From Escherichia coli (GTDB lineage: Bacteria > Pseudomonadota > Gammaproteobacteria > Enterobacterales > Enterobacteriaceae), in the NCBI RefSeq assembly GCF_003790525.1, contig NZ_CP033635.1: a stretch of DNA of 64,000 nt; one strand, 5' to 3'. Position 1 is the first letter of the stretch, and every line of letters begins with the position of its first letter. Of this stretch, positions 2,285 to 49,738 are shown piece after piece. A program made the translations under genes and the position numbers. The notes below the pieces were generated by a model that saw only the letters and a list, made by a program, of their open reading frames with translations, made no database searches and was not told the DNA's origin.

Positions 2285-3142
2285 ATGTTGTACCTGACGA
2301 AAATACGCAATGCGGAAAGTGAATTTACCGGGAACGAGCAAAAAATTGCTGACTTTCTGCGGGCCAACGTGAGTGAGCTGAAATCCGTCTCTTCGCGCAA
2401 GATGGCGAAACAGCTCGGCATCAGCCAGTCGAGTATTGTGAAGTTTGCCCAGAAGCTCGGCGCGCAAGGATTTACTGAATTGCGTATGGCGTTAATTGGC
2501 GAATACAGTGCCAGCCGGGAGAAAACGAATGCCACGGCGCTGCACCTGCACAGTTCGATTACCAGTGATGATTCGCTGGAAGTGATTGCCCGTAAACTGA
2601 ATCGCGAAAAAGAGCAGGCGCTGGAGCAAACCTGCGCGTTGTTTGACTACGCGCGGCTGCAAAAAATCATTGAGGTCATCAGTAAAGCACCGTTTATCCA
2701 GATAACGGGCCTGGGCGGGTCGGCGCTGGTGGGGCGCGATCTGTCGTTCAAACTGATGAAAATTGGTTATCGCGTGGCCTGTGAGGCCGACACCCACGTA
2801 CAAGCCACCGTTTCTCAGGCGCTAAAAAAAGGCGATGTACAAATCGCTATCTCTTACAGTGGCAGTAAAAAAGAGATTGTCTTGTGCGCCGAGGCAGCGC
2901 GAAAGCAGGGGGCGACGGTGATTGCCATTACCTCATTAACCGATTCCCCGCTGCGGCGGCTGGCGCATTACACCCTCGATACCGTTTCTGGCGAAACCGA
3001 ATGGCGCAGCTCGTCGATGTCCACCCGCACGGCGCAAAATTCTGTTACCGATTTACTGTTTGTTGGCCTTGTGCAACTCAATGATGTGGAGTCATTGAAA
3101 ATGATTGAGCGCAGCAGTGAGCTAACGCAACGCCTGAAATGA
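2285..3142 (+). CDS. murR: RpiR/SIS-family transcriptional repressor of murQP
   Basis: In-frame ATG at 2285 gives 285 aa ([25 protein letters not shown]...); the track ORF from 2030 is a 5' over-extension overlapping murQ. Confidence 0.88.
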
Positions 3143-3270
3143 TGCATAAAGCAGCGACTGGATTGAGATTTTCCTGAATTAGTGAGCTGATCCGCAGCAA
3201 TATTTTGTTTATCCTGTATTTTCAGAGGGAATGGAGTGTAACGCTCTGTATTAACAAGGAGAGCATTAAA

Positions 3271-4062
3271 ATGGGTAAACTCACGGGCAAGACAGCACTG
3301 ATTACGGGCGCATTGCAGGGAATTGGCGAAGGAATTGCCAGAACTTTTGCGCGTCATGGCGCAAACCTAATCTTGCTGGATATCTCCCCTGAGATCGAAA
3401 AGCTGGCGGACGAACTGTGTGGTCGTGGTCATCGCTGTACGGCGGTTGTCGCCGATGTGCGTGACCCGGCGTCGGTCGCCGCAGCTATCAAGCGTGCGAA
3501 GGAAAAAGAAGGGCGCATTGATATCCTGGTGAATAACGCAGGCGTTTGTCGTCTGGGAAGTTTCCTCGATATGAGCGATGAAGATCGCGATTTCCATATT
3601 GATATCAATATAAAAGGCGTATGGAACGTCACGAAGGCGGTGTTGCCGGAGATGATTGCCCGCAAAGATGGTCGCATTGTGATGATGTCTTCAGTCACTG
3701 GCGATATGGTGGCCGATCCGGGTGAAACGGCGTATGCCTTAACGAAAGCGGCGATTGTTGGCCTGACTAAATCGCTGGCGGTGGAGTACGCGCAGTCTGG
3801 TATTCGCGTTAACGCCATCTGCCCCGGATACGTTCGCACGCCAATGGCGGAAAGCATTGCCCGCCAGTCGAACCCGGAAGATCCAGAATCGGTGCTGACT
3901 GAAATGGCGAAAGCAATCCCGATGCGTCGCCTCGCCGATCCGCTGGAAGTCGGCGAACTGGCGGCCTTCCTCGCATCGGATGAATCCAGCTATTTAACCG
4001 GTACACAGAATGTGATTGATGGCGGCAGCACACTGCCGGAGACGGTTAGCGTCGGCATCTGA
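3271..4062 (+). CDS. ucpA: Short-chain dehydrogenase/reductase (furfural resistance oxidoreductase)
   Basis: 263 aa from MGKLTGKTALITGALQGIGEGIA... with Rossmann TGxxxGIG motif; internal ATG of track ORF 3205..4062. Confidence 0.9.
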   Translation: MGKLTGKTALITGALQGIGEGIARTFARHGANLILLDISPEIEKLADELCGRGHRCTAVVADVRDPASVAAAIKRAKEKEGRIDILVNNAGVCRLGSFLDMSDEDRDFHIDINIKGVWNVTKAVLPEMIARKDGRIVMMSSVTGDMVADPGETAYALTKAAIVGLTKSLAVEYAQSGIRVNAICPGYVRTPMAESIARQSNPEDPESVLTEMAKAIPMRRLADPLEVGELAAFLASDESSYLTGTQNVIDGGSTLPETVSVGI

Positions 4063-4219
4063 TTCACCTCTGTTTCCTCCCTGCATTTGTGGGGAGGATT
4101 TCGTCTTATTCCCTTTTCAACTTCCAAATCACCAAACGGTATATAAAACCGTTACTCCTTTCACGTCCGTTATAAATATGATGGCTATTAGAAAGTCATT
4201 TAATTAATAAGGGTGCGCA

Positions 4220-9078: not shown

Positions 9079-9538
<460 letters not shown>

Positions 9539-10423: not shown

Positions 10424-11849
10424 TAATGCCAGTCAGTTAAGCAACTGACTGGCTCTTTTTCGGGGCTGTGGGGTATTTCCAGGGCCTCTCCTTTACCACT
10501 CTCGGGAAGGCCCTTTCCCTTCTTGTCGGTAATTTCACAAGTTGTCCCATACTTGCAAGATCGCGCATCAGCTCCGGTATACGTCCCGGTGAAGCGCCCT
10601 GCAATGTCATCAGCATTCTCATCACCATTCCACATGATTCTGAGAAACTCAGTTGATTCGGCCAGTAACCTTTCAGATGTTCCGCCATTTTAATCATCTG
10701 ATATCTCACCAGATTATAAGCCAGTAAGACACCCCACAGCTCTTGCTCCACAAGCTCCGGTTTTTTACTTCTCAGCGTCAGCCTGCTCAGTTGCATCGTC
10801 TGTTTTATCTCCCTGTATCCCAGTTCGATTTCCCAGCGATGACTGTACAGATCCGCCATTTCTCCTCCGGGGAAGCGCATGGCGTCCGTCATCGACGTCA
10901 GCAGATGGCAGACTTTTCCTTTGCGCGTCACGGTCAGCAGGCGGGCTGTCACTTCATTTCCCAGTCCCGGCCACTTTTTTCGTGCCTGCGGGCTGGTTTT
11001 CAGCTTCACCAGATGATCGCCTTTACCCAGTTTTCTGATCTCTTCATATTGCGCTCCCTTTCTGAGAGGTATCATCCAGTGGCGGTGTTCTCCCGCCAGG
11101 CTCCAGGCATTTAACAGTCCCAGTGAGTAATAACCTTTATCCATTAACGTCAGAGTGTTATCGCCGGTTTGTTCTATAAGTTGCTCAGCAAGCTCATTTT
11201 CGCTGTTCTTCATCGTGCCGAAGGCTGCAGCCGTCAGCAGATGGCTGGTCAGTTCCATCTGGCAGACCATTTTGACCTGCGGGTAGAGCGCCGGGTTCCC
11301 GGCATGTGTCTGGCGGGGGAAGGCTGCATCGTTCTCTGGTGTATCCGGTGTGCGCCAGAACACACCATCGATGGCCAGCAGGGTCAGGCCGCACCAGTGC
11401 GGATGCGGCGTGGCGTTATGCCAGAGCTGCGCTGTTTTCGTGAACACGCGGCGGACAGCCTCACTTCCCAGGCGCTGGCGGGCCTGAATAACGGCACTGG
11501 GGGCAACGAAGGGGCGATTGCCCGGCAGCATGATGTCCAGGCGATTCACAATCTGGTGAAGAGGTTCTTTACGCTCAAGCGCCATGCCAACAATACACCA
11601 GACCATCATTTCGAGGGGAAGACGGCGCTTGCGTAGCGTTACAGTACCTGATTCGGCAAGGCAACGAGAGATGAGTTCGGGGTCGAGGTAATCCCCCAGA
11701 GAAGTCAGTGGGTTACGCAGAGAATCGTAACGGGATACCAGATCAAGAGCCTGTCCAATGTGCATAAAAAAATCCGGAAACAAGTGAGCGTTTCCGGATT
11801 CTTACACAGCCACTGGATCGGTCAACTGATCCTTAACTGATCGGCATTA
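10424..11849 (-). mobile_element. Insertion sequence IS4, 1426 bp, complete
   Basis: Terminal inverted repeats TAATGCCAGTCAGTTAAG (left) and TAATGCCGATCAGTTAAG (right, reverse complement), 16 of 18 matching; encodes the full-length transposase; flanked by a 12-bp direct repeat. Confidence 0.92.
10437..11765 (-). CDS. insG: IS4 transposase (DDE family)
   Basis: 442 aa from [26 protein letters not shown]..., the IS4 InsG sequence as I recall it; no frameshift or stop. Confidence 0.92.
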
Positions 11850-26705: not shown

Positions 26706-26726
26706 ATTTCGCAAATTGCAGATAGC

Positions 26727-26753
26727 AAAAAAGCGCCTTTAGGGCGCTTTTTT
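26727..26753. terminator. Bidirectional Rho-independent terminator shared by xapR and the val/lys tRNA operon
   Basis: aaaaaagcgcctttagggcgctttttt: GC stem with A-run and T-run on opposite sides. Confidence 0.65.
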
Positions 26754-26757
26754 ACAT

Positions 26758-26833
26758 TGGTGGGTCGTGCAGGATTCGAACCTGCGACCAATTGATTAAA
26801 AGTCAACTGCTCTACCAACTGAGCTAACGACCC
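26758..26833 (-). tRNA. lysV: tRNA-Lys (anticodon UUU)
   Basis: Reverse complement reads GGGTCGTTAGCTCAGTTGGTAGAGCAGTTGACTTTTAATCAATTGGTCGCAGGTTCGAATCCTGCACGACCCACCA. Confidence 0.97.
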
Positions 26834-28877: not shown

Positions 28878-28939
28878 ATTTATCCGGTGCGCCGTAAAAC
28901 CCCGTCCTTCAGGGCGGGGATATAAGGCGCGGTTTTCCA

Positions 28940-29356
28940 CCTGACCAGGTGTTTGCTGTTGTTCAATGTATTGGCGGATGACGGATATTGGCGCACCTCC
29001 GCAGCTACTGGCAAAATAGCCAGGACTCCACAAAACGCCTTTGTAGTAATACCTGACTGCAATATCTGGTCGATCTCGTCGCAGTCACCTACCCGATACG
29101 CCTTTGAGGCTGTTTACCAGACTGGATATCGCCAGTTTGGGAGGATAGTTAATTAACAAATGGACGTGATCTGGTTCGCCATCCATTTCAACCAGTTCAG
29201 CTTCAAAATCAGCACATACATTTGAAAAGTAAGTGCGTAGTTTTTCTGTCGCGTCATGGTCAAAAATCTGGCGTCGGTATTTGGGACAAAGACCAGGTGA
29301 ACATGCATCAGGAAAACACAATGCCTTCCACGCCGGATATCGGTTTCTTTTTTCAC
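28940..29356 (-). pseudogene. tnpA: IS200/IS605-family HUH (Y1) transposase TnpA, inactivated by a frameshift and an in-frame TGA; extent approximate
   Basis: N-terminus ...RHCVFLMHVHLVFVP is in one frame and ...PKYRRQIF...EMDGEPDHVHLLINYPPKLAISSLVNSLKGVSGR in another (1-bp shift at about 29285); TGA at 29082-29084, after which the same frame continues LWSPGYFASSCGGAPISVIRQYIEQQQ (catalytic Tyr region). Confidence 0.7.
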
Positions 29357-29378
29357 AGACCAAAATATAATTTGACCT

Positions 29379-30589
29379 GTGAAACGACTACAGGCATTTA
29401 AATTCCAGTTAAGACCCGGTGGTCAACAGGAGCATGAAATGAGGCGCTTCGCAGGCGCATGTCGTTTCGTTTTCAATCGTGCTCTGGCGCTTCAGAATGA
29501 GAATCATGAGGCCGGTAATAAATACATCCCTTACGGGAAAATGGCTTCCTGGCTGGTTGAGTGGAAAAACGCCACTGGAACGCAATGGCTTAAAGATTCT
29601 CCCTCACAGCCATTGCAACAGTCACTGAAAGACCTTGAGCGGGCTTACAAAAACTTCTTCCAGAAGCGGGCTGCTTTTCCCCGATTCAAAAAGCGGGGAC
29701 AGAATGATGCATTCCGCTACCCGCAGGGCGTTAAGCTCGATCAGGAAAACAGCCGTATTTTTCTGCCGAAACTGGGCTGGATGCGCTACCGGAACAGCCG
29801 TCAGGTCACGGGTGTTGTGAAAAATGTCACGGTCAGCCAGTCCTGCGGTAAGTGGTACATCAGTATTCAGACAGAAAGTGAAGTATCAACTCCGGTTCAC
29901 CCTTCAGCATCAATGGTCGGGCTGGATGCCGGCATGGCTGAACTTGCCACGCTGTCAGATGGGGCACAGTCTTTGAGCCTGTAAACAGTTTTCAGAAAAA
30001 CCAGAAGACGCTGGCGAGACTTCAGCGACAGTTAAGCCGCAAGGTCAAATTCAGCAATAACTGGAAGAAGCAGAAACGCAAAATACAGCGACTGCATTCC
30101 CGTATCGCAAATATCCGCAGGGACTACCTTCACAAAGTCACAACGACCGTCAGCAAAAACCACGCAATGATAGTCATTGAGGATTTGAAGGTCAGCAACA
30201 TGTCAAAGTCAGCAGCGGGTACGGTCAGCCAGCCGGGGCGCAATGTCCGGGCAAAATCAGGTTTAAACCGTTCGATACTGAATCAGGGCTGGTATGAAAT
30301 GCGCCGCCAGCTTGAGTACAAGCAGCTCTGGCGTGGCGGTCAGGTGCTTGCTGTTCCGCCAGCGTACACAAGCCAGCGTTGCGCGTGCTGTGGTCATACA
30401 GCGAAAGAAAATCGCCTGTCACAAAGTAAATTCAGATTCCAGGTATGTGGATATACAGCGAACGCCGATGTAAACGGCGCTCGTAACATTTTAGCGGCGG
30501 GGCACGCCGTTCTTGCCTGTGGAGAGATGGTGCAGTCAGGCCGCCCGTTGAAGCAGGAACCCACCGAAATGATTCAGGCGACAGCCTGA
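29379..30589 (+). pseudogene. tnpB: IS200/IS605-family TnpB (RuvC-like, OrfB_IS605 plus zinc ribbon), split by a single frameshift near 29970
   Basis: ORF 29379..29984 ends ...GLDAGMAELATLSDGAQSLSL; the next frame continues FEPVNSFQKNQKTLARLQRQLSRK... into ORF 30167..30589 (...IVIEDLKVSNM...CACCGH...C..C...NGARNIL); joined length about 403 aa. Confidence 0.8.
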
Positions 30590-30628
30590 ACGTAGCAGGG
30601 ATCCTCGTCCTTCAGGGCGTGGAGGATG

Positions 30629-31021
30629 TCAAGCTGATTCATCTATGTCGAGACGAGCAAGGAAATTACGAATTCCTTCGCGTGACAAAAATTGCGCAAC
30701 TTTTTCCCGCTCACTGTGAGTCATGTTGTCTATTGCGCTGATGATTTGCCGATAAGCAGGAGTGCGAATCCCCGGTGCGTATTCGGCAAGGGGTTCTTCG
30801 GCTTCCAGAAGCATCGGCGTGTTATGGAAGGCTGGCGTGTTCTGAATAAACTCGCAAACTTGCGTATCGACCAGAATAAGTCTGGCACGACCGCCTTTCA
30901 CGCCGGGAAATTTTTCCGTTTTCCAGCCTTTTTCTCTGATCCAACGGTTAACAGTTTGTTTAGCCACACCGAGGCATTCAGCCAGTTCTTCGGTGGTCAT
31001 TTTATTGCGTAATCTTTTCAT
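30629..31021 (-). CDS. yfeD: Small HTH DNA-binding protein (DUF1323 family)
   Basis: 130 aa (MKRLRNKMTTEELAECLGVAKQTVNRWIREKGW...), paralogous to the adjacent yfeC. Confidence 0.85.
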   Translation of the reverse strand: MKRLRNKMTTEELAECLGVAKQTVNRWIREKGWKTEKFPGVKGGRARLILVDTQVCEFIQNTPAFHNTPMLLEAEEPLAEYAPGIRTPAYRQIISAIDNMTHSEREKVAQFLSREGIRNFLARLDIDESA

Positions 31022-32000: not shown

Positions 32001-34190
32001 ATGTTTGTGGAGCATAACCTGATAAAAAATATCAAGATATTCACACTAGCGTTTACGCTCACCGTGGTACTTATTCAGCTATCCCGTTTTATTTCGCCAC
32101 TTGCCATTATCCATTCCAGTTATATCTTTCTGGCGTGGATGCCACTGTGCGTAATGCTGTCAATCTTGTTTATCTTTGGCTGGCGCGGTGTCGTTCCCGT
32201 TTTATGCGGGATGTTTTGCACCAATCTGTGGAACTTTCATCTCTCTTTTTTACAGACCGCGGTCATGCTCGGCAGCCAGACGTTTGTTGTGTTGTGTGCC
32301 TGCGCAATATTACGCTGGCAGCTGGGGACGCGTTGGCGTTATGGATTGACCAGCCGATATGTCTGGCAACGTCTGTTCTGGCTTGGTTTGGTGGCGCCGA
32401 TTGGCATCAAATGCAGCATGTATCTTGTGGGAAATTTCTTTGATTTTCCGCTAAAGATATCTACCTTTTTCGGCGATGCGGATGCCATTTTCACGGTCGT
32501 TGATTTGCTAAGCCTTTTCACCGCAGTGCTGATTTACAACATGCTTTTTTACTATCTCACCCGCATGATTGTAAGTCCCCACTTTGCACAGATATTGTGG
32601 CGTAGGGATATCGCTCCGTCGTTGAGCAAAGAGAAACGCGCATTTACCTTAAGCTGGCTGGCAGCTCTTAGCGTGCTGCTACTTCTGATGTGCACACCGT
32701 ATGAAAATGACTTTATTGCCGGTTACCTGGTACCTGTTTTCTTTATCATCTTTACCCTCGGTGTCGGTAAGCTTCGCTATCCGTTTTTAAATCTCACCTG
32801 GGCTGTTTCAACGCTTTGCCTTCTGAATTACAACCAGAACTTTTTGCAAGGGGTACTAACCGAATATTCGCTGGCATTTATTCTCGCAGTACTGATTTCC
32901 TTTAGTGTTTGCCTGCTCTATATGGTGCGTATTTATCATCGTAGTGAATGGCTTAACCGCCGCTGGCATTTGCAGGCGCTGACCGATCCGTTAACGCTTC
33001 TACCCAACTTTCGTGCGTTGGAGCAAGCGCCGGAGCAAGAGGCGGGCAAGAGTTTTTGCTGCCTGCGCATTGATAATCTTGAGTTTATGAGTCGTCATTA
33101 CGGCTTAATGATGCGCGTTCACTGTATCCGCTCAATTTACCGTACGCTGCTGCCGTTGATGCAGGAAAACGAAAAGTTGTATCAATTGCCGGGTAGTGAA
33201 CTGCTGATAGTGCTGAGCGGGCCGGAAACGGAAGGGCGACTCCAGCATATGGTTAACATCCTGAATAGTCGGCAAATTCACTGGAACAATACCGGGCTGG
33301 ATATGGGCTATGGTGCTGCCTGGGGGCGTTTTGATGGAAATCAGGAAACCCTGCAACCCTTGTTGGGGCAGTTAAGCTGGCTGGCGGAACAATCCTGCGC
33401 TCATCATCATGTGCTGGCGCTGGATAGCAGAGAGGAGATGGTTTCCGGGCAGACCACTAAACAGGTGCTATTGCTGAATACCATTCGTACTGCATTAGAT
33501 CAGGGCGATTTGCTGCTCTACGCCCAGCCAATTCGCAACAAAGAGGGTGAAGGTTATGATGAGATCCTCGCGCGACTGAAATATGACGGCGGCATTATGA
33601 CCCCGGATAAGTTTCTGCCCCTTATTGCTCAGTTTAACCTTAGCGCGCGTTTTGATTTGCAAGTGCTGGAATCCTTGTTGAAGTGGCTGGCAACACACCC
33701 TTGCGACAAAAAAGGTCCGCGCTTTTCAGTCAATTTAATGCCGCTCACGCTGCTGCAAAAAAATATCGCCGGGCGGATTATTCGTCTGTTTAAGCGTTAT
33801 CACATCTCCCCGCAGGCGGTCATTCTTGAGATCACCGAGGAGCAGGCGTTTTCTAACGCAGAAAGCAGCATGTACAACATCGAGCAACTGCATAAGTTTG
33901 GTTTCCGGATTGCGATTGATGACTTTGGCACCGGCTATGCCAACTACGAACGGTTAAAGCGTTTGCAGGCTGATATCATCAAAATTGATGGTGTCTTTGT
34001 GAAAGATATCGTCACGAATACGCTGGATGCGATGATTGTGAGATCAATTACCGATCTGGCGAAAGCGAAGTCATTGAGTGTGGTCGCGGAGTTTGTCGAG
34101 ACGCAACAGCAGCAGGCGCTATTGCATAAGCTCGGGGTGCAATATCTGCAAGGGTATTTGATTGGTCGCCCGCAGCCATTAGCTGATTAA
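32001..34190 (+). CDS. pdeA: c-di-GMP phosphodiesterase with N-terminal MASE1 membrane domain, degenerate GGDEF and EAL domains
   Basis: 729 aa from MFVEHNLIKNIKIFTLAF...; C-terminal EAL motifs (EITE, DDFGTGYANY); also known as yfeA. Confidence 0.9.
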   Translation: MFVEHNLIKNIKIFTLAFTLTVVLIQLSRFISPLAIIHSSYIFLAWMPLCVMLSILFIFGWRGVVPVLCGMFCTNLWNFHLSFLQTAVMLGSQTFVVLCACAILRWQLGTRWRYGLTSRYVWQRLFWLGLVAPIGIKCSMYLVGNFFDFPLKISTFFGDADAIFTVVDLLSLFTAVLIYNMLFYYLTRMIVSPHFAQILWRRDIAPSLSKEKRAFTLSWLAALSVLLLLMCTPYENDFIAGYLVPVFFIIFTLGVGKLRYPFLNLTWAVSTLCLLNYNQNFLQGVLTEYSLAFILAVLISFSVCLLYMVRIYHRSEWLNRRWHLQALTDPLTLLPNFRALEQAPEQEAGKSFCCLRIDNLEFMSRHYGLMMRVHCIRSIYRTLLPLMQENEKLYQLPGSELLIVLSGPETEGRLQHMVNILNSRQIHWNNTGLDMGYGAAWGRFDGNQETLQPLLGQLSWLAEQSCAHHHVLALDSREEMVSGQTTKQVLLLNTIRTALDQGDLLLYAQPIRNKEGEGYDEILARLKYDGGIMTPDKFLPLIAQFNLSARFDLQVLESLLKWLATHPCDKKGPRFSVNLMPLTLLQKNIAGRIIRLFKRYHISPQAVILEITEEQAFSNAESSMYNIEQLHKFGFRIAIDDFGTGYANYERLKRLQADIIKIDGVFVKDIVTNTLDAMIVRSITDLAKAKSLSVVAEFVETQQQQALLHKLGVQYLQGYLIGRPQPLAD

Positions 34191-34197
34191 CAGGCGT

Positions 34198-34228
34198 AAA
34201 AAACCGGGGAATTATCCCCGGCTTTTTT
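34198..34228. terminator. Bidirectional Rho-independent terminator between convergent pdeA and nupC
   Basis: aaaaaaccgggga-attat-ccccggctttttt. Confidence 0.7.
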
Positions 34229-34238
34229 ATGTATGGTC

Positions 34239-35441
34239 TTACAGCACCAGTGCTGCGATTGACGCAGACAGCACACTCACCAGGGTAGAGCCGTAAACCA
34301 GTTTCAGACCGAAGCGAGAAACCACGTTACCTTGCTCTTCATTCAGGCCTTTAACTGCACCTGCGATAATCCCGATTGATGAGAAGTTAGCGAAGGAAAC
34401 CAGGAACACAGAGATGATGCCTTCAGCACGCGGAGAGAGCGTGGAAGCAATTTTCTGCAGATCCATCATCGCAACGAACTCGTTGGAAACCAGTTTGGTC
34501 GCCATGATACTGCCCACTTGCAGTGCTTCACTGGAAGGAACACCCATCACCCATGCAATCGGATAGAAGATGTAGCCCAGGATGCCCTGGAAGGAGATGC
34601 TGTAGCCAAACCAGCCAGTCACGGTAGCAAACAGTGCGTTCAGCGCGGCGATCAGGGCGATAAAGCCGATCAGCATTGCGGCAACGATAATGGCAACTTT
34701 GAAACCTGCCAGAATGTATTCACCCAGCATTTCGAAGAAGCTCTGACCTTCGTGCAGGTTGGACATCTGAATGTTTTCTTCACTGGCATCAACACGGTAA
34801 GGGTTGATCAGCGACAGCACGATAAAGGTGCTGAACATGTTCAGTACCAGCGCCGCAACGACATATTTCGGCTCCAGCATGGTCATGTATGCACCAACGA
34901 TGGACATCGACACGGTGGACATCGCCGTTGCTGCCATGGTGTACATACGATTGCGGGAGATTTTGCCGAGGATATCTTTATAGGCAATAAAGTTTTCAGA
35001 CTGACCCAGAATCAGGGAGCTGACGGCGTTAAAGGATTCCAGTTTGCCCATACCGTTGACTTTGGAAAGCAGGAAACCAATTGCGCGGATAATCACTGGC
35101 AACACGCGAATGTGCTGGAGAATACCGATCAATGCAGAGATAAAGACGATTGGGCACAGCACTTTCAGAAAGAAGAATGCCAGGCCTTGATCATTCATGC
35201 TACCAAAGACGAAGTTAGTCCCTTCGTTGGCAAATCCGAGCAGTTTTTCGAACATTTCGGAGAAGCCTTTCACGAAGCCTAAACCAACGTCGGAGTTCAG
35301 GAAGAACCACGCCAGTAACACTTCGATAACAAGCAGTTGAATAACATAACGGATACGAATTTTTTTGCGGTCGCTGCTTACCAGCAGTGCGAGAATCGCA
35401 ACAACGGCAAGTGCCAGTACAAAATGAAGGACGCGGTCCAT
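34239..35441 (-). CDS. nupC: Nucleoside:H+ symporter (CNT family)
   Basis: 400 aa from [33 protein letters not shown]... Confidence 0.95.
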
Positions 35442-35713
35442 ATTTGCTCCAAATATGAGGCAGGTTAAATTTCCGTGCACATTCTATGTAACATGGTTAA
35501 GGAAAACGAGATCTGACACACACTATAATGACGTCCTGTGACAAGCTTCAAAAATAGTGAGCTGTCATACATTTCTGCTATGTTGTGTATGGAAGCTGAA
35601 AGTTATGTAAATGTGCTAACATTAAACATAATCACAACATTCAAGTCATCAATCTTTTCGTCGTCATAATTCTGGTCTATCAAAGAAATCATCACAATCC
35701 ACTTAAATGAATT

Positions 35714-35727
35714 TGATAATCATTCTC
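35714..35727. promoter_or_regulatory. Candidate Fur box in the mntH promoter
   Basis: tgataatcattctc resembles the GATAATGATAATCATTATC Fur consensus; mntH is a known Fur target. Confidence 0.4.
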
Positions 35728-35742
35728 GTTTGACATAGCATG

Positions 35743-35764
35743 AAACATAGCAAAGGCTATGTTT
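35743..35764. promoter_or_regulatory. MntR operator (palindrome) just upstream of mntH
   Basis: Inverted repeat AAACATAGC-aaag-GCTATGTTT ending 13 bp before the mntH ATG. Confidence 0.6.
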
Positions 35765-35767
35765 TAG

Positions 35768-37015
<1,248 letters not shown>

Positions 37016-37043: not shown

Positions 37044-37078
37044 GGCGGATGCGGCGTAAAACGCCTTATCCGCCCTAC
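37044..37078. repeat. REP element between mntH and ypeC
   Basis: ggcggatgcggcgtaaaacgccttatccgccctac. Confidence 0.55.
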
Positions 37079-37082
37079 GTGT

Positions 37083-37409
37083 TTAATGGCGATGTCCATG
37101 TCCGCGGCCTTTTCCGCGATGATCATCACGATCGCGCCAGCCTTCACGATAGCCACGCTCATACGCTTTACGCTTATCCCAGCCACGGTGGTAGCCATTA
37201 TCATGACGCCACCAGCGGTTCTTACGCCATTCATAATTGCGATGCCAGTAGTCACGGTCGCGCCAGTGACCACCGTCCCAGTAATTACCGTAATGATCGC
37301 GATCGCCAATTTGTAATTTGATTGATGGCAGTAGGGTGATTTCACCTGCGTTTGCCGCAAGCGGGGTAAATGCCATCAGGGCGGCCGCCAGAAACAGTGA
37401 CCTGAACAT
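37083..37409 (-). CDS. ypeC: Secreted low-complexity protein (DUF2502), rich in H/R/D/W/Y
   Basis: 108 aa with signal peptide [21 protein letters not shown], then repetitive [31 protein letters not shown]... Confidence 0.8.
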
Positions 37410-47292: not shown

Positions 47293-48026
47293 TTAAAGAT
47301 GCATTAACTGGCGGAATTCTTTAACTTTGCTGCGGCTGACCGGCACTTCAAAATCCAGATCTTTCAGCCGCAGAATGTAGGTGTTATTAAACCACGGTTC
47401 GATCTCGCGGATTTTGTTCAGATTGACACAAAATGAGCGATGGCAGCGGAAAAATGCGACGGCGGCAGCTTGCTGCAAAACTCGGTAATGTTCATCGGCA
47501 TTACGTAGGATTCACGCCGCGTATAGACAAAGGTCATTTTCTCATGCGCTTCGGCGTAATAGATATCGTTAATTGGCGTGACGATGATTCGCTCATCTTT
47601 CACCAGATTAATGGTGTCATTCTCACGCGTTACCGTCGTGGCAGGCGTACTGCTGGTCTGCTGTTGTTGCCAGGCTGCTTCCAGTTTTTGTAGCATCCCG
47701 GTAATGCGTGACTCCTGATACGGTTTGAGAATGTAGTCAAACGCCTCCAGTTCAAACGCTTCTACCGCATGTTCTTTCCATGCGGTGATAAACACAATAA
47801 ACGGTTTATGGGCGAACTGGCTGATGTTTTGCGCCAGCAACACGCCATCCAGCGACGGAATATTGATATCCAGAAAAATGGCGTCGACGCGGTTATGCTG
47901 CAAAAACTTCAACACGTCCAGACCGTCGTCAAAGGTGCCGACAATCTCCATCTGGCTGTGCTCTTTAATTAGCCAGCTCAGTTCCTGTTGTGCCAGGAAT
48001 TCGTCTTCAACAATGATGACTTTCAC
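47293..48026 (-). pseudogene. ypdB: LytTR-family response regulator YpdB, interrupted by a 1-bp frameshift in a homopolymer run
   Basis: REC domain plus most of LytTR in ORF 47418..48044 (ends ...KLPPSHFSAAIAHFVSI); the LytTR C-terminus FFRCHRSFCVNLNKIREIEPW... is in the overlapping ORF 47293..47478; frames meet at the T5 run 47450-47454 (minus strand); start may be the GTG at 48026 or the ATG at 48044. Confidence 0.8.
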
Positions 48027-48040
48027 AATATCACTCCGGC

Positions 48041-49738
48041 TCAAAGCAATAACGTAGCCTGTGAGGCGACTGGGGTGCGTTGGTTAGGAATGTAAAACGC
48101 AATTTCCGTTCCTGGTTCCAGGCGGCGGATATGCAGCCCCTCGCCATACAATAACTTCACGCGATGATGGACATTCAGCAGACCAATTTTATTGCCCGGC
48201 ATTTCGTTCGCTTCGACCCGCTCAATGACTTTTGGATCGATGCCGTGCCCGGTGTCTCGCACCGCAATGCGTACCCGATTACCGCACTCTGCAACGCTGA
48301 TGGTGACAACGCCTTTACCTTTGCAAGGCTGAATACCGTGGACAATGGCATTCTCCACCAACGGCTGGATCAGCAGGCTGGGAATGCAGCAATTCACCTC
48401 TTCATCAATATCATAGATAACCGTCAGCTTGTCGCCAAAGCGGGCCTGCTCAATGGCAATATAGTCTTTAATTTGATACAGCTCTTTTTTGATATCGATT
48501 TGCTCATCGTCTTTTAATTCAATGTTATAGCGCAGATAACGCGACAGATTAAAGATCAGCTGGCGAGCGGTATCCGGATTCAGACGGATTGACGATGAAA
48601 TAGCGTTCAGAGCGTTAAACAGAAAATGGGGATTAATTTTGCTTTGCAGCGCGCGAAGCTCTGCCTTATTTGCCATTTCACGTAACTGCTCGGCACGCGA
48701 AACCTCCAGTTGCGTGGAGATGATTTGCGACAGACCGACCGCCATTTCCTGTAATGATGACGTAATCTGATGCGCGTGGCAGTAGTAAATTTTCAGTGTT
48801 CCGGTCACAACGCCTTTCTCCCACAATGGGATCACCAGCATGGAATGAATCTCTGGTGTGCGGTGGGCTTCATCATTGTTTTTAATGATGATTTTTCCGT
48901 AATTCATCGCCTGTCGGGTAGTCGGGCTAATGAAGTCATCGCCATTCTGATAGTTGTGTTCACCCACGCCGACATAGGCCAGCACATGATCAGTATTAGT
49001 AATCGCCACCGCATCGGCGTGAATGTCATCGCGGATAATTTCGCAGACCTTGCGTAATGACTCGCTATTGACATGGCGAAACAGCGGCAGCGTTTTGTTG
49101 GCAATATCCAGCGCCAGCTTGGCCTGCCGCGCGGCGCTGGCCTCTTTTTCGCCCTCAACGCTTTGCACCAGCAGCACAATAAAGCCGATACAGACGCTAC
49201 CGAGGATCATTGGAATCCCGATTTTAGAGACGATATCGATCCCCAACGCGGTAGTTGGTGCCCAGACAATCACCAGAATCATGGTCAACGTTTCACATAA
49301 CATGCCGCCGAGAATACCGACGCGCCAGCGCTGTGCTTTAGGGATTTTCAGGTTGATCCAGCCCGATATACAACCCGCCAGAATGCTGGTGATAAAGCAG
49401 GGGATCGCCGTCACGCCGCCGATATCAATTAAATAACGGTGAATACCTGCGATCACGCCGGTAATAATGCCTACCCACGGGCCAAACAGAATTCCGCCTG
49501 ACATCACCGCGATAATACGTACGTTCACCAGCGAGCCTTCTACGGGAACGCCGGACCAGGTGCTGAACAGGGCGAACAGCGAGAAAATGGCGGTAACGGC
49601 GAGCAGCTCTTTCGGTGAGTGTGCCGACTTGTGCAACAGTTCGCGAAACAGGCGGATACGGATGAGAAAGAACAGGCAGATAAGCATTAACGCTGCCCGA
49701 TCGAAGACCGCCAGCAGCATGTTGAATATTTCGTGCAC
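48041..49738 (-). CDS. ypdA: Sensor histidine kinase of the YpdA/YpdB two-component system (5TM-LytS/GAF/HisKA)
   Basis: 565 aa with membrane N-terminus and C-terminal HATPase motifs. Confidence 0.92.

Follow-up and report, generated by a model that had tools for sequence, protein, structure and literature searches.

An empty IS186 target within the predicted pdeA/nupC terminator of an Escherichia coli strain outside the K-12 lineage

In the chromosome of Escherichia coli K-12 MG1655 (NC_000913.3), nupC (b2393) and pdeA (b2395) are separated by a copy of IS186, annotated as 'insertion sequence:IS186C' (2514273-2515617) and containing the gene insL3 (b2394), whereas in the window (the whole 64-kb stretch of E. 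coli DNA analysed here) the two genes converge with no insertion sequence between them. Why is the site empty in this strain: did IS186 never arrive, was it present and then lost, or is this copy of the target unable to receive it? We consider it about 90% probable that the locus is an intact ancestral terminator, containing a perfect IS186 target, that is empty for want of a donor. This reading is built on what was observed of the anatomy of the spacer, the stability of its hairpin, the target motif, the junctions of filled and empty sites, the counts across complete genomes and the lack of any IS186 copy on the chromosome of strain SMS-3-5.

Both halves of the contrast had been stated in an earlier, sequence-only reading of this DNA, which placed an IS186 copy at the nupC/pdeA junction of MG1655 and saw none in the window; the annotation of NC_000913.3 agrees with the first statement and a BLASTN search with the second. 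In this search, the IS186C sequence of MG1655 gave just a 23-nt chance match (E = 3) against the whole 64-kb window, and thus neither the 23-bp terminal inverted repeats nor the insL transposase gene of IS186 was recognized there. The filled site has the structure GCCGG[GGATAATTCC]-IS186 (1339 bp)-[GGATAATTCC]CCGG, in which the length of IS186 is measured from the outer end of one 23-bp inverted repeat to that of the other; the window, where the site is empty, has GCCGGGGATAATTCCCCGG. Alignment of the filled and empty junctions therefore places the insertion at the centre of the terminator-hairpin loop. If the ends of the element are drawn 2 bp further out, the 10-bp duplication around IS186 is equivalent to a duplication of the 6-bp core. 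The positions of these and the other features are collected in Table 1.

Table 1. Features of the window discussed in the text, and the aligned filled and empty sites
Feature	Position	Strand	Basis or sequence
pdeA (yfeA) CDS	32001..34190	+	stop TAA 34188-34190; ORF list
pdeA/nupC spacer, 48 bp between convergent stop codons	34191..34238		read from sequence
Predicted bidirectional intrinsic terminator	34198..34228		A6 34198-34203, stem-loop CCGGGG-AATTAT-CCCCGG 34204-34221, T6 34223-34228
Empty IS186 target GGGG(AATTAT)CCCC, GGGGAATTATCCCC	34206..34219		pattern searches; motif after Lee et al. 2016, PMC5009759
10 bp duplicated around IS186 in filled genomes, GGAATTATCC	34208..34217		junctions of MG1655, EC291, CM2, ST648, E. 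coli C, MDR_56
nupC CDS	34239..35441	-	stop TAA 34239-34241; ORF list; annotated nupC, 1203 nt
IS4, 1426 bp, absent from MG1655	10424..11849	-	12-bp duplication CGCCGATGGGCG; synteny gap with 12-bp overlap; Nterm_IS4 and DDE_Tnp_1 domains; junctions
Decayed IS200/IS605-family element, gltX-yfeD, absent from MG1655	~28884..30632		synteny gap; Y1_Tnp fragment, HTH_OrfB_IS605 and Cas12f1-like TNB domain on split ORFs
MG1655 filled site, nupC-to-pdeA direction			...AAAAAAGCCGG[GGATAATTCC]-IS186-[GGATAATTCC]CCGGTTTTTTT...
Window empty site, nupC-to-pdeA direction			...AAAAAAGCCGGGGATAATTCCCCGGTTTTTT...

The gene ends that define the spacer are the same in related annotations. In the RefSeq comparison, which used strain 165 (identical over a 1,041-bp query) and SMS-3-5 (identical over a 25-kb query), pdeA is a 2190-nt CDS with the same end in both strains. 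The spacer can be written as cag gcg t-AAAAAA-CCGGGG-AATTAT-CCCCGG-C-TTTTTT-atgtatggtc, that is, a hairpin with a G/C stem of 6-7 bp and a U-tract 3' of it on both strands (T6 on the plus strand; A6, equal to T6, on the minus strand), and the two stop codons (pdeA 34190 and nupC 34239) lie 13-17 nt from the hairpin. In a consensus scan the hairpin was called as a terminator on both strands. The plus-strand RNA is predicted to fold at -24.0 kcal/mol (z = -5.1) and the minus-strand RNA at -21.6 kcal/mol (z = -4.6), and none of 200 shuffles was as stable on either strand. The spacer thus reads as a predicted two-way Rho-independent terminator that would be able to end transcripts from either gene, and the hairpin probably acts as such in vivo. 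The sequence-only reading, in which pdeA and nupC were said to converge on one 48-bp bidirectional terminator, agrees with the ORF ends and the hairpin; what it passed over is that the hairpin itself is the IS186 target.

It is very unlikely that the palindrome is instead an element of another kind, for example a REP-like repeat or a site bound by a protein, or that it serves as host of a promoter rather than as a terminator. A sigma-70-like match (9 of 12 positions) at 34187-34215 does overlap the hairpin, but promoter-like matches occur here at the background level (three found against 1.5 +/- 1.2 expected from shuffles), and this one was dismissed as a chance match. The full architecture of a terminator is present on both strands, straight after two convergent stop codons; the hairpin element is single-copy within the window, and a search of 33000-36000 against Rfam (E <= 1) matched no family.

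The top of the hairpin, GGGGAATTATCCCC, is a perfect instance of GGGG(N6)CCCC and the sole N6 or N7 motif of this form in the 64-kb window. Lee et al. 2016 (PMC5009759) defined the target of IS186 as 5'-GGGG(N6/N7)CCCC-3' from 59 new insertions; they counted only 19 N6 and 35 N7 sites per genome and found that a single site may receive the element in both orientations. At the lon promoter, too, one and the same position has taken up IS186 both ways round (PMC3045373). One such motif in 64 kb is not unusual (the shuffle mean is 0.55, and 40 of 100 shuffles contained at least one), and statistical surprise, which was considered as an argument, was set aside as not significant. The motif has meaning here because the homologous sites are filled in other genomes, not because it is rare in the window.

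By this model, the transposase of IS186 would recognise GGGG(N6/N7)CCCC and make a staggered cut, with duplication of the core; an element that landed in the hairpin, in either orientation, would split it, and the terminator would be lost to both pdeA and nupC. In MG1655, no terminator was called at either junction, and the folds there (z = -0.6 and -0.9) are unlike that of a terminator. K-12 nupC and pdeA are thus presumably without their native terminator, nupC transcription would point into insL3, and read-through into IS186 is probable in filled strains.

The state of the site was surveyed in 5,426 complete E. coli genomes. No large insertion was found in about 4,460 of them (about 82%), in which a 1,041-bp probe aligned as one place. 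Judging by joins of the nupC or pdeA flank to IS186, the element lies in the K-12 orientation in 472-473 genomes and in the opposite orientation in 465-466, and the site is filled by IS186 in about 938 genomes altogether. The few dozen remaining genomes show other states, for example IS2 inside IS186 (Stbl4) or truncation (ST2747). IS186 was found anywhere in 2,203 genomes, with 7,670 chromosomal copies in total; the pdeA/nupC site holds about 12% of these copies and is filled in about 43% of the IS186-bearing genomes, all of these population figures being too high because laboratory derivatives of K-12 number in the hundreds among the genomes. IS186 has landed at this site in K-12 and, of the other complete E. 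coli genomes, in about 17%. The set with the opposite orientation consists mostly of wild or non-K-12 strains, including E. coli C, ATCC 8739, ML35, ETEC H10407, an ST131 strain, ST648, O157:H16 and O80:H26. Strain ETEC6333 (NZ_CP122600.1; locus 1020-1745) carries a different element, IS200C (about 712 bp, with tnpA), in the T-run just after the pdeA/nupC hairpin, and the hairpin itself is intact.

Both junctions were read in eight filled genomes. Six of the eight have the 10-bp duplication GGAATTATCC in common. In KK19-02 (locus 2479-2500) the duplicated core is a variant, GGAATGATCC, and the loop SNP is therefore older than the insertion; in H8 (locus 2480-2501) the duplication is 11 bp long, GGGAATTATCC. 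The variant core and the longer duplication are, to judge from the junctions, marks of separate insertion events. Flanks of 2.27 kb differ by 23-55 nt between backgrounds, except for E. coli C and MG1655, which are identical, whereas the IS186 copies at the site differ from one another by 0-1 nt (0-4 nt when CM2 is included). Because the copies are nearly identical and the flanks have diverged, the insertions must be much younger than the backgrounds carrying them. From these data we infer at least about six independent events, namely those of MG1655, E. coli C/EC291, ST648, MDR_56, KK19-02 and H8, plus that of CM2.

Between E. coli C and MG1655 there is no difference in the 2.27-kb flanks or in the 10-bp duplication, and their IS186 copies lie in opposite orientations. 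The simplest reading of this pair is independent insertion, and the lon hot spot behaves alike (PMC3045373); an inversion in place, or an excision followed by re-insertion, would leave the same sequence and cannot be told apart from it. The CM2 copy (locus 2500-3841) measures 1342 bp where the others measure 1339 bp, and the annotation gives its transposase as frameshifted; either a genuine defect or an error in sequencing a homopolymer could explain this.

Why, then, is the site empty in the window? Over 64 kb the window matches E. coli SMS-3-5 (NC_010498.1, 2575216-2639216, reverse complement), which we take to be an environmental isolate of phylogroup F, with 0 mismatches and one 1-bp gap. 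Chromosomal IS186 was scored with a probe that joined a single-copy window segment to an internal IS186 fragment, a match at one place meaning that the chromosome has no IS186. By this probe, IS186 is absent from the SMS-3-5 chromosome and from 20 of its 24 clone-mates among the matches listed; the other four carry 1, 2, 2 and 6 copies. Among the six copies of CM2 is one at this exact site, with the same duplication and with 2.27 kb of flanks that are identical to those of the window. The site can therefore receive IS186, and most probably it is empty in the window because the chromosome belongs to the SMS-3-5 clone and has no IS186 donor, not because the site is protected.

The CM2 insertion makes it hardly credible that the copy of the target in this lineage is defective or refractory to IS186. 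We found nothing in favour of such a defect; K-12 has one more base in the A-run (A7, here A6), but ST648 and MDR_56 share the A6 flank and yet are filled, and the motif is perfect. It is also highly improbable that the empty state is secondary, an ancestral IS186 having been lost by precise excision with restoration of the terminator. The identical 10-bp direct repeats that flank IS186 in filled genomes could in principle mediate such an event. However, the empty state of the great majority of genomes is found in all flank backgrounds, the filled sites are young (nearly identical copies within flanks that differ by 1-2.4%), chromosomal IS186 is absent from SMS-3-5 and most of its clone-mates, and excision of IS186 was seen once against 758 insertions (Lee et al., PMC5009759). 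An ancestral terminator that has remained empty for want of a donor accounts for the window better than either.

As to the strain, the synteny map gives an identity of 95.4-97.0% between the window and MG1655, and this divergence, together with the near-identity to SMS-3-5, bears out the placement outside the MG1655 lineage that had been proposed from the sequence. Other differences from K-12 are the absence of IS186C, the additional IS4 and IS605-family remnant, and the missing yfeS. The proposal had rested on the pattern of insertion sequences; its conclusion was right, but part of its argument was weak. Repeated insertion at the site, and the fact that most genomes have it empty, make a missing IS186 a poor guide to lineage, and it is the divergence that carries the placement. 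The extra IS4 and IS605-family element that it named are real, as domains, synteny gaps and RefSeq notes confirm. The window has an IS load of two elements in 64 kb, where a high load of the IS1/IS600 type would be expected of Shigella, and its reading as an E. coli record, not Shigella, would fit the near-identity to SMS-3-5 in a comparison that covered E. coli genomes only.

The IS4 copy lies inside the terminator hairpin of another pair of convergent genes, crr and pdxK, AAAAAAATGGCGCC-GATG-GGCGCCATTTTT, which is intact in MG1655. In the IS200/IS605-family element, tnpA is partial with an internal stop, and tnpB is frameshifted into ORFs of 201 and 140 amino acids, in agreement with RefSeq.

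Several smaller differences were recognized along the window. The gene yfeS (b2420), within about 960 bp of MG1655, is missing at 9081-9085, and the SMS-3-5 annotation passes directly from cysM to yfeK. MG1655 has about 143 bp extra at 4104-4107 and about 65 bp extra at 37077-37086, and the region from xapR to the lysV/valY tRNA cluster (26718-26775) aligns differently from MG1655. The sole difference between the window and SMS-3-5 is at 47450-47455, where the window has an A5 run and SMS-3-5 and every nearest genome have A6. The A5 run splits the response-regulator gene ypdB (ypdB/pyrR region) into ORFs of 208 and 61 amino acids (47418-48044 and 47293-47478, minus strand), and may reflect either a genuine frameshift or a difference that arose in sequencing or assembly; we could not find the A5 version among the complete E. 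coli genomes in the collection, where the best match was 99.7%.

The empty IS186 site is an ordinary, essentially known polymorphism. IS186C is annotated here in the K-12 reference and the target motif has been published, and the matter is thus already known in substance; an empty site is the expected ancestral state of a non-K-12 strain. A literature search for IS186 together with nupC found no paper in the collection searched, and the one paper joining IS186 with terminators treats terminator-like sequences borne by IS186, not the pdeA/nupC site. What is added here is modest: the hairpin of the terminator and the target of IS186 are one and the same, and in E. coli at large this site has received the element several times over, either way round. 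Because of these repeated hits, the presence, absence or orientation of IS186 at nupC/pdeA is unsuited as a clonal marker. Expression and 3'-end data obtained for nupC and pdeA in K-12 may not transfer to wild strains, and the 3'-end data are uninformative on the terminator, because IS186C splits the hairpin there. The site also offers a handy case, found in nature, of a hairpin that is at once a predicted terminator and the target of a transposon.

A wider view can be offered only tentatively, as something possible that we would not favour over its contrary. The site may be among the most heavily and repeatedly used natural landing sites of IS186, and may persist as one because a mutation in the stem would weaken a terminator shared by two genes; terminators between convergent genes would then be preferred 'safe-harbour' targets. 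The extension to palindrome-seeking insertion sequences in general comes from the IS4 copy in the crr/pdxK terminator and the IS200C copy in the T-run of ETEC6333, which join the case of IS186.

Bidirectional intrinsic terminators between convergent genes are an established general class. Members of this class (bioRxiv 10.1101/2024.07.17.603904) have the same G+C-rich hairpin between an A-tract and a T-tract, and the site in the window differs from them in being known from its sequence only. With the known hot spots of IS186 (the lon promoter, fimA and menC; PMC5009759) the pdeA/nupC site shares the perfect N6 motif, the duplication of the core and the occurrence of both orientations at one position. 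It is different from those hot spots in being intergenic, between the ends of two genes, so that an insertion breaks no gene or promoter, and in being occupied in natural isolates, whereas the hot spots were found in selected laboratory mutants. Compared with the IS186C locus of MG1655, the chromosomal position is the same to the base, whereas the window has no IS186, an unduplicated 10 bp and flanks that are about 2% different. The IS4 insertion at crr/pdxK resembles that of IS186 at pdeA/nupC in lying within a convergent-gene terminator hairpin, with a duplication centred on the loop. However, element and target are different, the duplication is 12 bp, and the situation is the reverse: the crr/pdxK site is occupied in the window, whereas in MG1655 it is empty.
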